Below are positions 3,270 through 45,553 of a stretch of DNA of 64,000 nucleotides, in pieces. Below the pieces are notes generated by a model. That model was given only the letters and a program-made list of their open reading frames with translations, made no database searches and was not told the DNA's origin. Numbering within the stretch: position 1 is the stretch's first letter; every line of letters begins with the position of its first letter. Origin of the DNA: Escherichia coli phage AZ21; the sequence record LC788708.1. One strand, given 5' to 3'. Made by a program: the position numbers and the translations under genes.

Positions 3270-4415
3270 ATGACTACTTTACTAAACCTGAATTGGGATC
3301 ATACTAACGCTGACCTTTTCCTGGGAGATTCTCTCGGTATCGCAGATTATGTACGTGTAGCACATCCAGAACTAGAACGTCTGGCACTTCTGCAACGCTC
3401 TCAATTTTGGACTGAAACTGAAATCAGTCTGGAAGCAGATAAGAAACAATGGCCCAATCTCCCTCGTGAAATTCAGGAAATTACACTCCTGAACTTAGCA
3501 TGGCAAACTCAAACTGATTCCTTTATCAGTCGTGCCCCTGAAGCAGCTATTATGCCACTTGTAAGTCGTCCAGAATTGGAAGGTATGCTCAAACAGTGGA
3601 GCTATTTTGAAGACCTGCATAGTCGTGCTTATAGCAATATTATTCGTAATGTGCTGACTGATCCAGCAGAATTTATTGATTCTGTAACCAAAAACCAAGA
3701 AGCATTCGCGCGCATCGCTGATTCTGTTGAACTATTCGATGAACTGTACCAGTTAGGTCAGTATTTCATCGCAGTACGCGATCATCGTGGAGACAATACA
3801 TATCCAGAAACTGAGTTCCCTGAAGTTAAACGTGAAACTCAGGCTAAACTATTGGACGCTTACTTTGCGATCTATGGTCTGGAAGCAATGCAGTTTTACG
3901 CATCCTTTGCATGTACCTTTGCATTAGCAGAGAACGATATTCTGCAAGGTATTGCTAAAAATCTGCAATTAATCGCTAAAGATGAAGCTCTGCACACTCA
4001 GATGTCCAAAGCAATCATCCAGATTATGTTTCAGCAATTTGACAAAGATCTGGTAGATGAGGCAGTAGCTAAAGCACCAGCACAGCTCCTGAAAACTCTG
4101 AAAACTGAAATTGAATGGGGTCATTTCATTTTCAAAGGTCGTAGTCTGATTGGCTTGAATGCAGAACTTCTAGAAGAATATCTGTACTTTGTGGGGCGCA
4201 ATGCATTTATGCACATCGGTGTAGAATGGCCTAGTCACTTACCAGTAATCACCAAAAACCCTATTCCGTGGATCATGAACTGGTTGGATACTACTTCTCT
4301 ACAGCCTGCTCCGCAAGAAATCCAGATTGGTGCAGCTTACCGTGTAGGTCAGGTAACTGAGACCTCTACTGATACTCTGAAAGATCTGGGTAATGAATTT
4401 GGAGATTTCTTATGA
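3270..4415 (+). CDS. nrdB: ribonucleotide reductase small subunit
   Basis: 381 aa directly after nrdA with RBS; length and helical di-iron-type sequence consistent with NrdB. Confidence 0.8.
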   Translation: MTTLLNLNWDHTNADLFLGDSLGIADYVRVAHPELERLALLQRSQFWTETEISLEADKKQWPNLPREIQEITLLNLAWQTQTDSFISRAPEAAIMPLVSRPELEGMLKQWSYFEDLHSRAYSNIIRNVLTDPAEFIDSVTKNQEAFARIADSVELFDELYQLGQYFIAVRDHRGDNTYPETEFPEVKRETQAKLLDAYFAIYGLEAMQFYASFACTFALAENDILQGIAKNLQLIAKDEALHTQMSKAIIQIMFQQFDKDLVDEAVAKAPAQLLKTLKTEIEWGHFIFKGRSLIGLNAELLEEYLYFVGRNAFMHIGVEWPSHLPVITKNPIPWIMNWLDTTSLQPAPQEIQIGAAYRVGQVTETSTDTLKDLGNEFGDFL

Positions 4416-7077: not shown

Positions 7078-7356
7078 ATGCGAATTTATAACTCAAATTC
7101 ATTAGGATTTAAACCATTGAGAAAACGTGCACAATCACCTCGTCAAATAAGAAAGGCTAATATTGGTGAGCCAGAGACACGCCTTCCACCTCCTCCAGAA
7201 CAACGTTTAGTTTATCTGGACGAAGAATTAGCTGAACGCGAAAGAAAAGCTCAAGAAGAGATTGAGCGTAAGAAAATGTGTACTGCTCCAGCGTATAATA
7301 AAGGGGCGTATCAATACGTCTCAGATGCCGAACAAGCTAAGATGGTTGGTAGATAA
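7078..7356 (+). CDS. hypothetical protein
   Basis: RBS GAGGAGGG then ATG. Confidence 0.4.
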   Translation: MRIYNSNSLGFKPLRKRAQSPRQIRKANIGEPETRLPPPPEQRLVYLDEELAERERKAQEEIERKKMCTAPAYNKGAYQYVSDAEQAKMVGR

Positions 7357-7372
7357 TTTTTAAAAAATTCAT

Positions 7373-7401
7373 TTGCTAAACGCTTCAAATTCTCGTATAA
7401 T
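7373..7401 (+). promoter_or_regulatory. sigma70 promoter (T5 early type)
   Basis: TTGCTA-17-TATAAT then CATAAATTGAT leader. Confidence 0.65.
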
Positions 7402-7439
7402 ATACTTCATAAATTGATAAACAAAAAGGAAAACAAATA

Positions 7440-7955: not shown

Positions 7956-8019
7956 TAGATAAATAGGGGCGAAAGCCCCTACAATCGACTAATTCTCTAA
8001 CTAATCAAGGATATTTTTT

Positions 8020-9247: not shown

Positions 9248-9276
9248 TTGCTTCCGGCTCCAAAATTCTGTATAAT
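9248..9276 (+). promoter_or_regulatory. sigma70 promoter (T5 early type)
   Basis: TTGCTT-17-TATAAT then CATAAATTTGAG leader. Confidence 0.65.
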
Positions 9277-9316
9277 ATATTCATAAATTTGAGAAAACAA
9301 TAAAAGGAAAACAAAT

Positions 9317-16717: not shown

Positions 16718-16753
16718 CTGATACAGCACTGAGCAAGTTCTTTAAAATTTGAC

Positions 16754-16782
16754 TTGCTCAGTGCCTTAAAACTTGATATAAT
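16754..16782 (+). promoter_or_regulatory. sigma70 promoter ahead of tRNA-Tyr
   Basis: TTGCTC-17-TATAAT. Confidence 0.6.
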
Positions 16783-36978: not shown

Positions 36979-37027
36979 TTGTAATACTCCTCTAGTTAGT
37001 GGGGCGAAAGTAACGCCCCGTTATTAA

Positions 37028-37258: not shown

Positions 37259-37364
37259 TTTAAGCCTCCAAATTTTTGGGAAAATTTTCAACCGTCCTCA
37301 AACGGTGTAAAGGCATTATAACAAAAAAGGCCGCCATAAAAGGCGACCTTTACAAAACTTTACA

Positions 37365-37859: not shown

Positions 37860-37923
37860 AATTAGTCTCCTATTAATTAACAAGGAAATAGTAAAGCGGG
37901 GAAATAATCCCCGCTAGATATTA

Positions 37924-38929: not shown

Positions 38930-39195
38930 TTTATTTTGTCTCCCTCGTTAATCGGTGAGTGAATGATAAGGGTAATTTTCTAGCATAGGCAAATATTATT
39001 TTACTTTTTTATTTTCCTTGCCTAGCGTCTAATTTTATGCTAACCGCGCAGCGGTGCAATAAAGAGCAAACCACGGCGAAGCCACCAGCCCGACGCATTG
39101 AGGCTTTACTTTAATATTACCTTACAGCGTTTAGCTCGTTAGAATGCGTTTTGGGCCACTTAAAATTGATTGCAGTTGTTAACACTACCTTTCTA

Positions 39196-39215
39196 CCCTG
39201 TATATTTATACAGTG
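39196..39215. promoter_or_regulatory. LexA-box-like palindrome CTGTATATTTATACAG
   Basis: Exact reverse complement of the 35202-35217 core; lies upstream of the minus-strand block. Confidence 0.55.
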
Positions 39216-39224
39216 GAATAACCT

Positions 39225-39233
39225 GTGGATAAG
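39225..39233 (-). promoter_or_regulatory. DnaA-box consensus (TGTGGATAA on + strand)
   Basis: Exact reverse complement of TTATCCACA; second copy at about 39298-39306. Confidence 0.6.
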
Positions 39234-39554
39234 TCTGTGCAAAAGTCCTTATATCACCGCCTATCGTGTCAAGTTATTTTGTGCTGTGGAAAACATTGTG
39301 GATAACTTAAATGATAGTGCTTCTCACTTAGGCTAATGATTTCTTATAGTTATTATTTCTCATTAATTTATAAGTATATTATATATTATCAAATAGTTAG
39401 TTGGCTAATGAGATTTTCCGTGATTAATAGTCTGCTAATAATTCAGGTCGTTACAATCCACCAGCATGATTATCATTCTAGCAATTATTAGTCTGCTATC
39501 TTTCCGATACATACTAACAAATAAAAGTCAATTAATTTATTTCATAAAATAAGT

Positions 39555-39591
39555 AGTTATCCACTGGAAAATAAAAGTCAAGTGGATAACT
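39555..39591. repeat. perfect 11 bp inverted repeat AGTTATCCACT-N15-AGTGGATAACT
   Basis: Each arm contains a DnaA-box variant TTATCCACT. Confidence 0.8.
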
Positions 39592-39978
39592 AGGAAAATT
39601 TCATTTTTGCTTTTGGGGATAAGTTATCAACAAGGCTAGAATGCGCCTAAAACGCTCCAGAACGCGATGAAGTTTTTAGCCACCCCATCATAAGGGGATA
39701 GGCCGTTTATCGCTGCCACGAGCTTTTTAGATTTTGTCAAGTAGGGGAAAGCAAATATAAATGAAAAAATTACTTGCCTATTTGCTTTATTTTGTGGTAT
39801 TCGCGCCCGTTTCTTTTAATTTTAGGCCGTCGCCGGACGTGGTGCGGTGAATTTTGTCTTTACGTTTCTTTACAAAAATAAGGTTGCGCCATTTTCGGGA
39901 ATCCCCTATTATTTATCACGTAGGGCGGCAATGACGAACTACACGGCGGGAAGTTTACCGCCACGCTCTTTAAAAATT

Positions 39979-40002
39979 GGGTACATCTTAAAGCCTATCG
40001 GC
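39979..40002. repeat. left arm of 24 bp inverted repeat (GGGTACATCTTAAAGCCTATCGGC)
   Basis: 23/24 match to the reverse complement of 40247-40270. Confidence 0.85.
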
Positions 40003-40034
40003 GGTAAACTTATTTATTATAAGGAATCGACGAT

Positions 40035-40247
40035 ATGAAACAAACTTTATTGATCACTGGCAAGCCTATTAAGGCACTAGATAGCAAAACAAAAAATTTG
40101 TTGACAGTAGCGCAAAGATCGGTAAAATACCGATTCACGCAGTACAAGAAAGACCGCCAGCAAGGTTTAGAAATGATCTGGCGAAACATTATGATTGACT
40201 TGAAAGAAAATCATAAAAAACTGCAAAAAAATTATTTGACAACCTAG
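40035..40247 (+). CDS. hypothetical basic pre-early protein bracketed by the 24 bp inverted repeat
   Basis: 70 aa; stop codon TAG lies in the right repeat arm. Confidence 0.4.
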   Translation: MKQTLLITGKPIKALDSKTKNLLTVAQRSVKYRFTQYKKDRQQGLEMIWRNIMIDLKENHKKLQKNYLTT

Positions 40248-40270
40248 CCGATAGGTTTTAAGATGTACCC
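40247..40270. repeat. right arm of 24 bp inverted repeat (GCCGATAGGTTTTAAGATGTACCC)
   Basis: See left arm. Confidence 0.85.
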
Positions 40271-40391
40271 AGTTCGATAAGAGCGATAACTTGATAAAAT
40301 TTGACGGTCGGTGCTTACCATAATGCGCCCCGCCCCCTAACGGGATATAGCGGCCTACGTGGAGTTCTTTAAATTGATTATAGCGGCGAGA

Positions 40392-40445
40392 GGATTGTTA
40401 CTTATTACCTGCTAGTATTTTCTAGTAGGTAATAAGTAACAATCC
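40392..40445 (+). other. long hairpin, 24 bp stem (23/24) with 6 nt loop
   Basis: GGATTGTTACTTATTACCTGCTAG-TATTTT-CTAGTAGGTAATAAGTAACAATCC, just upstream of the next RBS. Confidence 0.8.
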
Positions 40446-40468
40446 ATCAAATAACTGGAGTTTATATT

Positions 40469-40720
40469 ATGCAAAACGTTATTACCGCGCCTAAAATTGG
40501 TCAATCCGTCTTTATTCCTTTCGTTACTAAAACGGATGAATTAACCGGAAAGGCCGAACGTATTAAAGGTGCGGCGCTTATGCCGTTCGATACAATCGAC
40601 GCGGTATATGCTGAAAATGAACGCAGTAACAACGGCAAGCCCGTTTTTAGCGTTCGCGTTAAATCCGGCGATGTTGTAAAGGTTGTTCAACGCAACGAAA
40701 AATGGGAAGCTGTGTTGTAA
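40469..40720 (+). CDS. hypothetical pre-early protein
   Basis: RBS CTGGAG then ATG; 83 aa. Confidence 0.45.
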   Translation: MQNVITAPKIGQSVFIPFVTKTDELTGKAERIKGAALMPFDTIDAVYAENERSNNGKPVFSVRVKSGDVVKVVQRNEKWEAVL

Positions 40721-40818
40721 TTTAGTGTTAACTTTATATCCCCCTTATTTCAGGGGGATATAACGATTAACATTAAGTTAATCTAATCCCTTAAATTAAA
40801 CTAATAGGAGTTTTTACC

Positions 40819-41226
40819 ATGACTAACGCAAAAACCGCAAAATTCGCATGGAATGAAGAAAACACTCAGAAAGCTGTTACCATGTACCAGCAGTTAATCA
40901 ACGAAAACGGTTTAGATTTTGCAAATAGCGACGGCCTGAAAGAGATTGCAAAAGCAGTAGGCGCGGCCTCCCCCGTATCCGTTCGGTCAAAATTGACCAG
41001 TGCAAAAGCCTATCAAAAAAGCGATAAGCCGCGTAAAGTTGGCGGCGGTAGCTCTGTGCGTAAAGCTCACTATGTGCGAGTAATTGCAAAACACGCTATC
41101 GATTCCGGTATTATCAAAGACGCCGATGATCTGGCAAGCCTTGAAAGTGCTAAACTGGAAACGCTGGACGCGGTGGCGCAACTGTTAGGCGTTGCCGATG
41201 AAGTAAAACAAGCCGTAGGTGAATAA
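40819..41226 (+). CDS. hypothetical pre-early protein, possible A2 homolog
   Basis: 135 aa; RBS TAGGAG; sits on the inner side of the A1-like gene with one small ORF between; name assigned by position and size only. Confidence 0.4.
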   Translation: MTNAKTAKFAWNEENTQKAVTMYQQLINENGLDFANSDGLKEIAKAVGAASPVSVRSKLTSAKAYQKSDKPRKVGGGSSVRKAHYVRVIAKHAIDSGIIKDADDLASLESAKLETLDAVAQLLGVADEVKQAVGE

Positions 41227-41316
41227 TAGTTATACCTTGCCCCCTTCTAGTGAGGGGGCACTAATATAACTGTTTAGCGATAGTTATTTTCTTCCCTTAA
41301 ATCAGGAGTTTTAAAA

Positions 41317-41514
41317 ATGGTTTTCTTCCCTACTGAATCTTTGATTCTAGGCTTGTTTATTATGGCGGCCTCATTATTGTTCGCTTATTTTCAGAATGAT
41401 TTAGATTCGTATTATTTTAAACGTAAATCTAAATTAGCAAAACGTTTGGGCTTGCTTTGTTTTATCGCTGCCGTTGCCTGTGGTGTTAGTTCGAGTCTAG
41501 TACCATTAAATTAA
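41317..41514 (+). CDS. small membrane protein
   Basis: Two TM helices; RBS CAGGAG. Confidence 0.35.
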   Translation: MVFFPTESLILGLFIMAASLLFAYFQNDLDSYYFKRKSKLAKRLGLLCFIAAVACGVSSSLVPLN

Positions 41515-41601
41515 TGTTGCAAATTATAACGCCTATTATTCGAGGCGTTATATTTGGCAATATTGCCATTATTAACCTAATCCCTTTAATGGAGTTTTAT
41601 T

Positions 41602-43272
41602 ATGATTATTTCCGCAGAAAAACAAACCGTTATCCTGAAAATGGCCGCTGATTTCAATTTCTACGGTAAACGCCTGCGCGCCACTAAACTGGAGGTCTGC
41701 GACGATATTTCAAAAGCGGTCTACGATACAACGAAACACTCCACCGCTATCTGCGACTGGCTGGAAGCAAATAAACCAGCGAAACCAAAAGCGGCAAAAG
41801 TAGCAAAAGCCATTAAAAACGGTGAGCGCCCCGAAGCGGCTGGGATTGTTTCTAGTACCGTGGAGCAGTGGGAAGTAAAACAAGGTAAACGCTTTATTAT
41901 TACATCGATTCAGAATAATACTTTCCCGCATAAAAACTTTTTAGCCTCACTGGAGCAATTTGCTAAATATATCGGGGCTGATTTGCTCGTTTCTAAGTAT
42001 ATTTATAATAAAAACGGTTTTCAAAATGGGGAAGGTGCTGACGGAATCAAATATGATTCCGCGTTTGATAAATATATTTGCAGCAAAAACGTGTTTTTGA
42101 ATAACCGCCGCTTTGCTTTCATGGCTGAAATTAATGTTTTGCCTACCGCAGATTATCCGCTTTCTGGATTCGCAGAAACTGCAACGGCTTTAAATATTGA
42201 AGGTCTGGCAATTGGTCACGCTAAAATTACCGCTGAAAGCGTACCAGCTTTAAAAGGTGAAGTAGTGCGCCGTATGTACTCAACCGGAACGGCAACGCTC
42301 AAAAACTACATTCAGCAGAAAGCAGGACAAAAGGCCGAGGCGCTGCATAACTTCGGTGCGCTTATTGTTGAGTTCGACGAGGACGGGGAATTTTTTGTAC
42401 GCCAGCTTGAAACGATGGACGAAAGCGGGGTATTTTATGATCTGAATGTGTGTGCTACTCCTGCCGGATGCTATGAAACATCGGGGCATGTTTTAGGCTT
42501 GCAGTATGGCGATATTCACGCCGAAAAATTAGATGAGGAGTGCGCCGCCGCGTCATGGGGGCATGGTGATACTTATGGGCTAGTAGATATTCTTAAACCA
42601 AAATATCAGTTTGTGCATGACGTGCATGATTTTACATCGCGCAATCATCATAACCGCGCATCGGGTGTATTCCTAGCAAAACAGTACGCCGCCGGACGTG
42701 ATAAGGTTATTGATGATCTTATCGATACGGGGCGCGTGCTGGAATCAATGGAGCGTGATTTTTCTCAAACAATCATTGTTGAATCGAATCACGATTTGGC
42801 GTTATCCCGTTGGCTTGATGATCGTAATGCTAACATCAAAGACGATCCAGCAAACGCAGAACTGTATCACCGCCTGAATGCTGCAATTTACGAGGCAATC
42901 GGTGAACATGACGAAACGTTCAACGTGCTAGATTATGCGCTGCGCAAGGTTGCAGGTTGTGAGTTTAACGCCATTTTCCTGACCACTGACCAATCTTTCA
43001 AGATTGCAGGCATTGAATGCGGCGTACACGGTCACAACGGCATTAATGGCAGTCGTGGCAATCCCAAACAATTTAAGAAATTGGGCAAGTTAAACACTGG
43101 TCATACTCATACGGCAAGCATTTACGGCGGGGTATATACCGCTGGCGTAGCTGGTAGTCTGGATATGGGTTACAACGTTGGCGCGTCAAGCTGGACGCAA
43201 ACTCATTTAATTACCTATGCAAACGGTCAGCGCACTTTGATTGACTTTAAGAACGGTAAATTTTTTGCGTAA
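41602..43272 (+). CDS. A1: A1-like pre-early protein, calcineurin-like metallophosphoesterase/nuclease
   Basis: 556 aa, the length I recall for T5 A1; metallophosphoesterase motifs YGDIHAE, HDVHDF, ESNHD, GVHGHNG, GHTHT; RBS AATGGAG. Confidence 0.75.
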   Translation: MIISAEKQTVILKMAADFNFYGKRLRATKLEVCDDISKAVYDTTKHSTAICDWLEANKPAKPKAAKVAKAIKNGERPEAAGIVSSTVEQWEVKQGKRFIITSIQNNTFPHKNFLASLEQFAKYIGADLLVSKYIYNKNGFQNGEGADGIKYDSAFDKYICSKNVFLNNRRFAFMAEINVLPTADYPLSGFAETATALNIEGLAIGHAKITAESVPALKGEVVRRMYSTGTATLKNYIQQKAGQKAEALHNFGALIVEFDEDGEFFVRQLETMDESGVFYDLNVCATPAGCYETSGHVLGLQYGDIHAEKLDEECAAASWGHGDTYGLVDILKPKYQFVHDVHDFTSRNHHNRASGVFLAKQYAAGRDKVIDDLIDTGRVLESMERDFSQTIIVESNHDLALSRWLDDRNANIKDDPANAELYHRLNAAIYEAIGEHDETFNVLDYALRKVAGCEFNAIFLTTDQSFKIAGIECGVHGHNGINGSRGNPKQFKKLGKLNTGHTHTASIYGGVYTAGVAGSLDMGYNVGASSWTQTHLITYANGQRTLIDFKNGKFFA

Positions 43273-43328
43273 TTAAATTATTTCCCTAGCGGCTTGAAAT
43301 ACAGCCGCTATTACAGGAGCTAAATTAA

Positions 43329-43607
43329 ATGGCTATTAAAATTAATCTTCCCAATATTAAAAACACCGCTGATATATGGTCGATTGATACTATATTGCGT
43401 GGCACTGTATACCGTAATTTAAAAGATAATAATTGTTATATTTATCAAAATGAATTAAACGGCCATATTTACATAATCGAGTCCGATGGTTTTTGTTCTT
43501 TTGAGACTGATTATGAAGCGCAAGATCATATACAGGCAAATGATATTCCTGACGTATGGAAAGAAACAAACCTTGCTTTTGTTGTAAGTCTTGAAGCTAA
43601 CAAATAA
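43329..43607 (+). CDS. hypothetical pre-early protein
   Basis: RBS CAGGAG; 92 aa. Confidence 0.4.
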   Translation: MAIKINLPNIKNTADIWSIDTILRGTVYRNLKDNNCYIYQNELNGHIYIIESDGFCSFETDYEAQDHIQANDIPDVWKETNLAFVVSLEANK

Positions 43608-43645
43608 ATTAAATATCTTATTAAATTAATTGGAGTTTTACAAAT

Positions 43646-44038
43646 ATGAAAAAGCAAAATATTCCATTCGATCGCGCTCAGTCTTCTATTGTTCTGGTTT
43701 ATTCTAATGGTGAGCGTTACCACGTCGAGGCGGGGCACGTTATTGATGAATTATTAGATTTCAATGACGCTTTACAGGTTACTACCTTTGCCTACACGCA
43801 AGGCCGCGCAAGTAGTTACATTAAGGCCGCAGGCGTTTATGTTGACACGGTGAAACAAGAAACGATTATCATCGACGCAGTAAAATCCGGTCTAGCCTTT
43901 GCAGTTGTCGCGCCTTGCCCCTCTTGTCTTGATGATCAGCTAACGAGTGCGAAAGTATACACCTGCGCGGGCATTCGTTCCCATGTATCAGGAGAGGATA
44001 TTAGTTTTATCGCTGATGCGTTGGCTTATGGTCTTTAA
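43646..44038 (+). CDS. hypothetical pre-early protein
   Basis: RBS TTGGAG; 130 aa. Confidence 0.45.
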   Translation: MKKQNIPFDRAQSSIVLVYSNGERYHVEAGHVIDELLDFNDALQVTTFAYTQGRASSYIKAAGVYVDTVKQETIIIDAVKSGLAFAVVAPCPSCLDDQLTSAKVYTCAGIRSHVSGEDISFIADALAYGL

Positions 44039-44118
44039 TAGTTGATTTATTATTGCCCGCTGATAGATAGCGGGCAATGCTGGATAAACTACATCCCTTT
44101 AATGGAGAACGTAACAAA

Positions 44119-44853
44119 ATGAATCAAGTTAAAACGAATATTTCCCGTAACTTCCCGCATATTTCCCGCGTCATGATCTGGGATCTTGATGGCACTATCG
44201 TTAATTCATTCCATCGTGTAGCGCCTTGCTTTGATAGTGAGGGTAATCTAGATTTAAATAAGTATAAGAATGAGGCTTGCAAACATGATTTAATAATGCA
44301 GGATACTTTATTGCCTTTGGTGGAATATATGCGCCAATGCATGAATGACGCAAATACTTTAAACATTATTTGTACCGCTCGATTAATGAGCAAATCGGAT
44401 TATTATTATTTGCGCAAACAAGGCTTGCGAGGGCGTGGGGATAGCAATATCCGCGTGTTTTCCCGCGACACGCTGCATAAATATTTTGAAGCTGATAAGG
44501 TTAGCGAGATATACCACAGTAAAGACGCAGTTTATAAATCGTATTACTTTGAATTATTTAAACAGCTATATCCGAACGCTGATTTCACAATGATTGATGA
44601 TCATAAAGGTGTATTATCAGCGGCGGCGTCATACGGATTTAAAACGCTAGACGCGCAAGCCGTTAACGATATTCTATCAATCGGCGTGGCATTGATAGGC
44701 GGAACCTTTATTGATGAATCTCTCGATGATGATAATGATTATCAGTTCCTAGCCGATCGATTGAAATTATGTTGGGAAAGTATGACCGAAGAAGAACGCG
44801 CAGAATATAGTTGCAGCCCGCAACAATATATTGAGAAATTAAAAGTTGCGTAA
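44119..44853 (+). CDS. dmp: HAD-family 5'-deoxyribonucleotidase (Dmp-like)
   Basis: HAD motif I VMIWDLDGT near N-terminus; 244 aa from the RBS-supported ATG; same CCCTTTAATGGAG leader as the A1-like gene. Confidence 0.7.
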   Translation: MNQVKTNISRNFPHISRVMIWDLDGTIVNSFHRVAPCFDSEGNLDLNKYKNEACKHDLIMQDTLLPLVEYMRQCMNDANTLNIICTARLMSKSDYYYLRKQGLRGRGDSNIRVFSRDTLHKYFEADKVSEIYHSKDAVYKSYYFELFKQLYPNADFTMIDDHKGVLSAAASYGFKTLDAQAVNDILSIGVALIGGTFIDESLDDDNDYQFLADRLKLCWESMTEEERAEYSCSPQQYIEKLKVA

Positions 44854-45017
44854 TAATTAAAGTTGAAATAGTTTCATCCTGCAATTAAAATGGTTGCGGG
44901 ATGAAACAATTACCCTGCTAATAGTAACGGGGGTGGCGGTTAGCAGACTAAGTATTCTCCCCCAACCCACTGGACACACCTCCATGTGTAATCCTATGAA
45001 ATTTGGCAAAAGTCAAA

Positions 45018-45263
45018 TTAGCGCATAGAAGGGTCATCAAACCTGTGCTCTGGTCTGAACTCACGGAATCTCTTCCACGACGCCCGAGATCCATCAGACC
45101 ACTCCCGCTCAAACTCCGCACGTTTCTCGTCAAACTTCCGCTCCCTTTCCGCAATCTCTCGCGTCACCCCCGCGATATATTCCCGATGCTTGTTAATTGC
45201 CGCAGTTGTCCCGAAAACTCCCGCGAGTATCCCGATAATAAAAGCAATTACAATACTAAACAT
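45018..45263 (-). CDS. small membrane protein
   Basis: N-terminal TM helix; RBS GAGAGGG on minus strand. Confidence 0.35.
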   Translation of the reverse strand: MFSIVIAFIIGILAGVFGTTAAINKHREYIAGVTREIAERERKFDEKRAEFEREWSDGSRASWKRFREFRPEHRFDDPSMR

Positions 45264-45450
45264 CTAATTCCCTCTCAATTTGCAGAATACGGGTACTATC
45301 ACAACGTTGCAGTAGTGCTAGCTTTTCTAGAGTAACTTGTTGTTGTTTTACCTGAGCTTCTAGAGTTTTTAGGCGGAGATACACGATACGAGAGACAATG
45401 AGGATTACCCAGACTAATATTACCATTAGTGTAATTGCCGCTTCCATCAT
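45256..45450 (-). CDS. small membrane protein
   Basis: TM helix; RBS GGAGAAA on minus strand. Confidence 0.35.
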   Translation of the reverse strand: MMEAAITLMVILVWVILIVSRIVYLRLKTLEAQVKQQQVTLEKLALLQRCDSTRILQIERELDV

Positions 45451-45553
45451 TTACGTTTCTCCAATAATAAGGTTTCAATTCTAGCTAAATGATTATCTAA
45501 AATACATTGTCCAATAATCACAATCCCTAGTAGTGCAATAATTACCCATTCCA

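Follow-up and report, generated by a model that had tools for sequence, protein, structure and literature searches.

Hairpins under selection for pairing punctuate the leftward pre-early operon of a T5-like phage and may delimit stable mRNA segments

The leftward pre-early operon of Escherichia coli phage AZ21, a T5-like coliphage, carries a stable hairpin just past six of the seven genes that run from T5.007 to dmp, and comparison with related phages points to selection for base pairing in the sense messenger RNA (mRNA). It is tentatively proposed that these hairpins are stem-loops which RNA polymerase reads through and which block exonucleases, delimiting stable segments of the pre-early message. 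As long as 92% of its DNA has yet to enter the cell, a T5-like phage can express nothing but the pre-early operon. At this stage there is one copy of the DNA and a few minutes of transcription, in which A1 and A2 must be made to pull in the remaining genome; we know of no account of how the relative amounts of the pre-early proteins are set, or of how their synthesis is shut off. The window, that is, the whole stretch of DNA that was analysed, comprises 64,000 nucleotides (nt) of sequence record LC788708.1. Over bases 40000-45100, identity is 100% to Escherichia coli phage AZ23 (LC788707) and 88% to T5; matches to this stretch were found in 470 phage records. Comparison with three annotated T5 records identified 40035-44853 on the plus strand as the leftward pre-early operon of the T5 terminal repeat, and this homology bears out a first-pass annotation of the sequence that had called the region a pre-early block.

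All six hairpins listed in that annotation (here H1 to H6, Table 1) were found again at the same places by sequence and by folding, and its description of a hairpin after almost every gene was accurate. The hairpin cores begin 10-17 nt past the stop codons, which end at 40720, 41226, 41514, 43272, 44038 and 44853. With GC-rich core stems of 8-17 base pairs (bp), loops of 3-8 nt and folding free energies (dG) of -12 to -22 kcal/mol, they have the stem and loop of a terminator. When the intergenic segments were compared with 200 dinucleotide shuffles each, H1 to H6 gave z = -4.7, -3.5, -4.5, -3.1, -4.2 and -5.0, respectively; no shuffle folded as well in the case of five hairpins, and 3 of 200 did for H4. 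The same comparison gave z = -0.9 for the gap after T5.003 (43608-43645), where no hairpin was found.

Hairpins were also more frequent at the gene ends of this block (6 of 7) than at the other gene ends of the window (30 of 104; Fisher p = 0.005). Hairpin frequency was nevertheless rejected as a hallmark of the block, since at gaps of at least 35 nt the comparison became 6/7 against 29/52 (p = 0.22); hairpins after genes are common genome-wide wherever an intergenic gap exists. What sets the block apart is a gap after every gene, the absence of U-tracts and an accompanying conserved box, described below, and not the number of hairpins per gap. A search of Rfam in E-value mode with bases 39000-45500 returned only chance microRNA-like matches on IR0, a further hairpin in the 5' untranslated region ahead of T5.007, and a sub-threshold match to the S15 leader.

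The evidence for selection came from a comparison of 57 loci, found through the A1 protein, together with T5, BB1, Bas31 (DaisyDussoix) and Bas33; about 40 of the loci were T5-like. A1 homologues at about 40% identity (L045-L061) belonged to other phage types with no comparable punctuation and were set aside as uninformative. Across the T5-like loci the flanks of each site were nearly invariant, and the stems and loops varied. Each variant in the roughly 40 loci retained a stable hairpin, with a median dG per site of -14 to -24, as against -3.4 at the hairpin-free gap. In H1, pair 12-29 occurred as all four Watson-Crick types (AU 5, CG 4, UA 3, GC 2), and 98.7% of H1 cells were paired, compared with about 40-60% when the partner was slid. 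Three pairs of H6 and five of IR0, in which 90% of cells were paired, had changed on both sides. None of 500 shuffles reached the covariation score of H1, of H6 or of IR0. In H5 a compensatory change from G-C to A-U separated TTGCCCGCT/AGCGGGCAA from TTACCCGCT/AGCGGGTAA, and the apical stem of H3 covaried as well (CGCCT/AGGCG versus CGCTG/CGGCG or CAGCG).

At several sites one hairpin had been exchanged for another. At the H2 site, 47 loci could be anchored on the end of A2; every one of them had a hairpin, and these hairpins belonged to several unrelated sequence families, one of them the 'palindrome B' of T5. The H5 site also held two unrelated replacement hairpins, and the H6 site was taken in some relatives by a second, unrelated family (AGTCACGGTGTGT/ACATGCCGTGACT). 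At H4 the stem was replaced in situ, as TTGGCGGCT/AGCCGCCG, TCGGCGG/CCGCCA, TAAGCGGGG/CCCCGCTTA or TAAGCTGG/CCAGCTTA. The loop GAAATA (43295-43302) was kept while the stem changed at the H4 sites of L013, L031, L037, L038 and L044. The gene past H4 was present, absent or replaced among relatives, and the H4 hairpin thus marks a cassette boundary. Because the stems vary with pairing kept, and unrelated hairpins swap at fixed sites, selection acts on pairing and not on sequence. No compensatory change was seen in the lower stems of H1 and H2; one variant breaks the lower stem of H1, and the T5-type H2 hairpin has none.

The stems also differ between the strands. In H1, H6 and IR0 together there were 72 G.U cells on the plus strand and 8 A.C cells, an A.C cell being a G.U pair on the minus strand, where the cells count sequences and not independent events. 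By element, G.U against A.C cells were 6 to 0 in H3, 15 to 0 in H5, 34 to 0 in H6 and 30 to 6 in IR0. Of 46 variants of H3, H5 and H6, 41 folded more stably on the plus strand (pooled Wilcoxon p = 6.5e-6), among them 15 of the 16 variants of H3, and the mean dG of H6 was -23.8 on the plus strand versus -18.5 on the minus strand. For IR0, H1, H3, H5 and H6 this points to the sense mRNA as the selected structure, and argues against a palindrome in duplex DNA or an antisense RNA. A stable sense-transcript hairpin under pairing selection, as expected of a stabiliser, is what these comparisons describe.

The first-pass annotation had described the hairpins as mostly without U-tracts, and this was confirmed. 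A terminator scan flagged none of the six, and the 8 nt past each stem contain 2-4 T (at most 3-5 across relatives). Weighted T-tail scores were 1.8-3.6 for the hairpins, against a background of 2.2 +/- 0.6 and scores of 4.3-5.5 for nine canonical terminators of the window, taken from a hand-checked list. Automatic classing of the window hairpins by T content gave 0/6 in the block and 13/30 elsewhere (p = 0.07), a comparison that is unreliable because the finder absorbed U-tracts into extended A-U stems. In E. coli, hairpins that lack a U-tract are poor intrinsic terminators. H1 to H5, moreover, do not end a transcription unit: a consensus scan found no promoter-like site in their spacers, although a weak internal promoter could escape such a scan, and three or more hairpins precede both A1 and dmp. 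H6 does lie where the transcription unit ends. In two more distant Demerecviridae, L040 (3383-3408, 3917-3954, 6055-6084) and L042 (3378-3421, 6344-6368), the equivalent hairpins have T-tracts and are followed by an ATCCCTT box. The presence of a U-tract thus varies among lineages, and the hairpin and box persist.

Expression data were available from one relative. The only public transcriptome of such a phage is that of Bas33 (HildyBeyeler, MZ501074), given as transcripts per million (TPM) per gene at 20 min (PMC13250531, Dataset S1B), and Bas33 shares the six hairpins and the hairpin-free gap. The maximum group mean TPM was 1232 for T5.008, 12199 for T5.007, 5207 for A2, 1171 for T5.005, 4925 for A1, 1143 for the T5.003-like gene, 4425 for T5.002 and 2218 for dmp (PMC13250531). 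The cistron profile is non-monotonic and up to 12-fold unequal, and the sawtooth persists with and without daunorubicin (TPM divided by the listed fold changes). The lowest cistron is the gene without a 3' hairpin, and the highest is T5.007, which is flanked by IR0 and H1. This profile does not fit one stable unprocessed transcript; it fits segments of differing stability. Nor, because it rises again twice, does it fit a simple cascade of leaky terminators. One uniform unprocessed transcript was the result that the first-pass annotation had named as contrary to its idea, and the strongly unequal, non-monotonic cistrons of Bas33 are a different result. That idea, of processing or stabilisation elements rather than simple terminators, stands in part: selection on the sense-strand RNA, the lack of U-tracts, the need to read through to A1 and dmp and the unequal Bas33 cistrons speak for it, whereas partial termination keeps a place beside it and the endonucleolytic cutting is conjectural.

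The proposal preferred here, which is held with slightly less than even confidence, can be set out as a sequence of events. Host RNA polymerase would start at the equivalents of the T5 promoters P-H22 and P-D/E20 (40101-40264) and would pass the hairpins, giving one long transcript from T5.007 to dmp. H1 to H5 must be passed, because A1, which serves second-step transfer, and dmp lie downstream and the spacers have no promoter-like site; the hairpins would stop little transcription because they lack a U-tract. Each hairpin lies immediately beyond the stretch covered by a ribosome that terminates at the stop codon before it. The transcript would then be cut in the A/U-rich spacers, or the polymerase would run off the end of the DNA 123 nt past dmp, and 3'-to-5' exonucleases would come to a stop at the hairpin. 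Single cistrons, or pairs of them, could then persist as capped segments with separate half-lives. With IR0 closing its 5' side and H1 its 3' side, T5.007 would accumulate most. At H6 the polymerase would run off the left-repeat DNA end in any case, so that a terminator seems unnecessary there and a 3' cap would be useful.

Several observations weigh against this proposal. The folding energies of H1, H2 and H4 show no strand preference. Other parts of the window, such as 7958-7986 and 16726-16764, have hairpins without a U-tract as well, and the U-tract of H3 is borderline or partial (GGCGUUAUA-UUUGG, with UAUAUUUGG past the GC core). In two Demerecviridae that are more distant (L040; L042/L043), the hairpins at these positions carry T-tracts and have the look of ordinary terminators. 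Ahead of A1, a putative promoter is marked in the T5 record AY692264. The Bas33 data are per-gene TPM from a single late time point (20 min), in which T5.005 is low despite H3, three of the low genes are short (198-291 nt), so that length or library bias may contribute, and the falls across H1 and H2 are also compatible with partial termination. No 3'- or 5'-end mapping, Northern blot or Term-seq of T5-like pre-early RNA was found in the searchable literature.

Some of these points are shared with the idea that the hairpins are leaky intrinsic terminators or attenuators, each of which stops some polymerases, so that the promoter-proximal T5.007 and A2 are made in excess and H6 ends the unit. 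The geometry is terminator-like (GC-rich stems of 8-12 bp, loops of 5-8 nt, 10-17 nt past the stops), H3 is followed by UAUAUUUGG, and H1 in BB1 and H6 in AY587007, the latter on the opposite strand, have been annotated as terminators. TPM in Bas33 falls about 2-5 fold across H1 and falls again across H2. The chief support comes from the L040 and L042/L043 equivalents, whose hairpins have T-tracts and lie no more than about 25-30 nt from the start of the next gene. However, five of the six hairpins lack a U-tract though the same genome uses canonical ones elsewhere, and Bas33 TPM rises 2-4 fold at A1 and at T5.002, which is impossible for a terminator cascade without internal promoters, of which the spacers gave no sign. 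H6, in addition, precedes the DNA end in the left repeat. Leaky attenuation, the strongest rival of the stabiliser proposal, is on balance doubtful as the main role, but it deserves serious weight, and attenuation and stabilisation might coexist. Cleavage by RNase III is a further candidate: the host enzyme would cut extended stems, in the style of the T7 early operon, and leave hairpin-ended monocistronic messages. The setting is T7-like, with a first-entering operon, host polymerase and structure between nearly all genes, and IR0 (24 bp), extended H1 (about 23 bp, bulged) and H6 (17-21 bp) are long enough to be substrates, so that it could apply to these three. As a general explanation it fails, because H4 and H5 have only 8-12 bp and the lower stems neither covary nor are conserved; H2 and H3 reach 17-18 bp only through such unsupported lower stems, which in H2 of T5 type are missing altogether. 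There was also no Rfam match, and RNase III processing sites are considered improbable.

A different kind of explanation gives the RNA little present role. The hairpin and box might be recombination modules, or remnants of them, that arrived with small genes and now lie at cassette boundaries, as has been described for the PeSL elements of T4-type phages. Unrelated hairpins have indeed been exchanged at the same sites (H2, H4, H5, H6), which marks boundaries as PeSL do, the gene past H4 comes and goes among relatives, and a near-identical stretch of box and Shine-Dalgarno (SD) sequence of about 25-30 nt precedes most genes. Against this, point-wise compensatory change within the hairpin lineages of H1, H5, H6 and IR0 indicates that selection for pairing continues, the modules lack the promoter half that defines a PeSL, and the modules also flank the core genes A2, A1 and dmp; a purely recombinational role therefore seems rather improbable. 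Least of all would a DNA-level element be expected, such as a cruciform or a palindromic site for A2 or a host protein in the first-step-transfer DNA. The hairpins do lie within the first-entering DNA, two of the sites were termed 'palindromes' by T5 annotators, and truly invariant palindromes adjoin H1 and H3. The stem sequence is free while pairing is kept, which is the opposite of what a dimeric DNA-binding protein needs, the 72:8 asymmetry of G.U over A.C is unexpected for a symmetric duplex, and the loops vary in length and sequence, all of which make this reading highly improbable.

The preferred reading of the hairpins as read-through stabilisers places them among familiar elements, functionally closest to the early operon of T7 with its punctuation and to the stabilisers that stand between cistrons in bacteria. 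From terminators, RNase III sites, REP and PeSL they differ in at least one defining feature each. In T7, the 3' hairpin left after an RNase III cut stabilises the upstream message. Dunn and Studier reportedly described, in 1983, the RNase III sites R0.3 to R1.3 of the T7 early (class I) operon. The present operon is like that of T7 in having structure before the first gene and between almost all genes, and in being the first to enter and to be transcribed as one long RNA by host polymerase. It is unlike it in that each T7 site is a bipartite duplex of about 20 bp, has an internal loop that is conserved and is proven to be cleaved, while cleavage here is only conjectured; four of the six cores here have 8-12 bp, without sequence similarity, and only IR0, H1 and H6 are of comparable length. 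The REP/BIME elements of malEFG and the puf hairpins are read-through stabilisers believed to hold up PNPase and RNase II, so that the cistrons of a single transcript differ in abundance. Like these bacterial intercistronic stabilisers, the hairpins are stable in the sense RNA, lack a U-tract and stand just past a cistron; unlike REP/BIME, they show no REP consensus or repeat-family match, and each site has its own fast-evolving sequence. Intrinsic terminators have stems and loops of similar size, a similar GC content and a similar distance from the stop codon, but the U-tract is missing in five of the six hairpins and weak in H3, and needed genes lie downstream. The PeSL of T4-type phages, finally, consist of a strong sigma-70 promoter and an effective terminator between small early genes (PMC2839356). 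The T5-type modules share with them the repeated stem-loops that coincide with boundaries of insertion, deletion or replacement, but lack the promoter-like part; in its place, a conserved box immediately precedes the Shine-Dalgarno sequence.

Individual hairpins had been noticed before. The T5 record AY587007 annotates H5 ('palindrome A'), the H2 site ('palindrome B') and H6 (as a putative rho-independent terminator on the minus strand), and the record of phage BB1 annotates H1 as a 'terminator'; the 'palindrome B' hairpin of T5 is unrelated in sequence to H2 of the window. Four of the six sites had thus been annotated earlier, singly and without a function. No description of the operon-wide pattern, the covariation or the strand bias was found in the accessible literature, where a preprint by Davison covers only injection-stop repeats.

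Table 1. Coordinates of genes, hairpins, boxes and other features in the window
Feature	Position	Strand	Remark
Promoter-like TTGACA-16-TAAAAT	40101-40128	+	11/12 match; position of T5 pre-early P-H22 (AY543070, AY692264)
Promoter-like TTGACA-17-TAAGAT	40236-40264	+	position of T5 P-D/E20
T5.008 homologue	40035-40247	+	upstream of main promoters
IR0, 24-bp hairpin of the 5' untranslated region	40392-40445	+	just before T5.007 SD; z = -9.1
T5.007 homologue, coding sequence, 83 amino acids	40469-40720	+	T5 record comparison
H1, 12-bp core, 6-nt loop	40734-40745 / 40752-40763	+	possible lower stem 40721-40777 (about 23 bp with bulges)
Invariant palindrome GATTAAC-ATTAA-GTTAATC	40765-40783		directly past H1
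Box TCCCTTAAA	40787-40795	+	before A2 SD (GGAG 40807-40810)
A2, coding sequence, 135 amino acids	40819-41226	+	T5 record comparison
H2, 9-bp core	41238-41246 / 41252-41260	+	extended 41227-41272; site of T5 'palindrome B'
Box TCCCTTAAA	41293-41301	+	before T5.005 SD
T5.005 homologue, coding sequence, 65 amino acids	41317-41514	+	two transmembrane segments per T5 annotation
H3, 10-bp core	41525-41534 / 41543-41552	+	then UUUGG; most terminator-like of the six
Invariant palindrome TGGCAATATTGCCA	41555-41568		directly past H3; identical in 28/28 variants, most divergent included
Box TCCCTTTAA	41581-41589	+	before A1 SD
A1, coding sequence, 556 amino acids	41602-43272	+	T5 record comparison
H4, 8 bp, loop UGAAAUAC	43287-43294 / 43303-43310	+	between A1 and T5.003
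T5.003 homologue, coding sequence, 92 amino acids	43329-43607	+	sole gene of the block without 3' hairpin
T5.002 homologue, coding sequence, 130 amino acids	43646-44038	+	T5 record comparison
H5, 9-12 bp	44053-44061 / 44069-44077	+	'palindrome A' of T5 record AY587007
Box TCCCTTTAA	44094-44102	+	before dmp SD
dmp, coding sequence, 244 amino acids	44119-44853	+	T5 dmp is 735 nt
H6, 14-17 bp, one U.G pair	44871-44884 / 44894-44907	+	69-105 nt from physical left genome end
Terminal-repeat boundary	44976		T5 genome base 1 (blastn, T5 bases 1-400 against window)
Canonical U-tract terminators, examples	3172, 13849, 18162, 23778, 54802, 59802, 63535; minus strand 37351		T-tail scores

Two matters of annotation bear on the map. 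The longest open reading frame of dmp begins at 44077, in the 3' arm of H5, and represents an upstream extension; the homology to the T5 Dmp protein of 244 amino acids, and the box and Shine-Dalgarno sequence at 44094-44107, indicate that the real start is 44119. T5 base 1 aligns to window position 44976, and the assembly therefore has the terminal repeat collapsed. The direct terminal repeat is about 10 kb, and the boundary corresponds to the physical left end of the genome. At the pre-early stage no template other than the left repeat is in the cell. Only in the right-hand copy of the repeat does dmp adjoin the convergent T5.162 homologue (45018-45263, minus strand). Transcripts from P-H22 have been detected in vivo by primer extension (PMC7472727), and A1 is needed for second-step DNA transfer in T5 (T5 records AY543070/AY692264).

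The divergent minus-strand pre-early operon is also punctuated by hairpins (37326-37351, 37895-37915 and 37001-37019); among the three are a canonical U-tract terminator, an intermediate case and a hairpin that lacks a U-tract. The Bas33 homologues of three genes of that operon fall monotonically, at 3540, 2363 and 537 TPM. The early region seems to consist of many short promoter-gene-terminator units, unlike the pre-early block. Within the window, 7355-7420 and 9266-9308 closely resemble the classic strong T5 promoters P-H207 and P-N25.

IR0 lies downstream of both pre-early promoters and ahead of the first strongly expressed gene. It is bipartite in most relatives (8 bp, a 4x4 internal loop, 11 bp), and in this form it resembles, by analogy, an RNase III site of T7 type or a 5' stabiliser. 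The palindromes past H1 and H3 may be protein-binding sites, because they are constrained in sequence and not in pairing.

The box, ATCCCTTWAAT, sits 2-14 nt 5' of the GGAG(TTTT) Shine-Dalgarno sequence of A2, T5.005, A1 and dmp, and degenerate boxes lie near 40443-40456 (before T5.007) and 43617-43631 (before T5.002). Four of the five exact matches to TCCCTTWAA in the 64 kb fall within this 3.4-kb block, all on the plus strand, and the box recurs before the pre-early genes of L040 and L042, whose A1 is only 65-67% identical. A role as a -10 element was rejected, since TTTAAT and TTAAAT have T, not A, at -11 and the start would fall at or after the Shine-Dalgarno sequence. Pairing of the box with the Shine-Dalgarno sequence or with the 3' arm of the hairpin works, by eye, only for H1 and H2 and is not general. 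The box is the most novel-looking part of the locus, a candidate translation enhancer, operator or cleavage signal. A bolder and improbable reading would join hairpin, ATCCCTTWAAT box and uniform GGAGTTTT Shine-Dalgarno into one pre-early control module of the Demerecviridae, read by a dedicated factor. This factor could be a nuclease or RNA-binding protein, a counterpart of T4 RegB/RegA, that cuts the RNA into hairpin-capped messages or shuts off translation; or an A1-modified RNA polymerase could begin to terminate at the U-less hairpins. Either version, if true, would be a mechanism for the long-unexplained A1-dependent shut-off of the pre-early genes.

Hairpins in the sense RNA that are fixed in position and constrained only in structure, together with a box that is shared across genera, are concrete cis elements to mutate. 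Annotation pipelines that call some of these hairpins terminators would wrongly split the operon. The elements are of a familiar kind, and confirmation would refine the biology of T5 and not overturn it.

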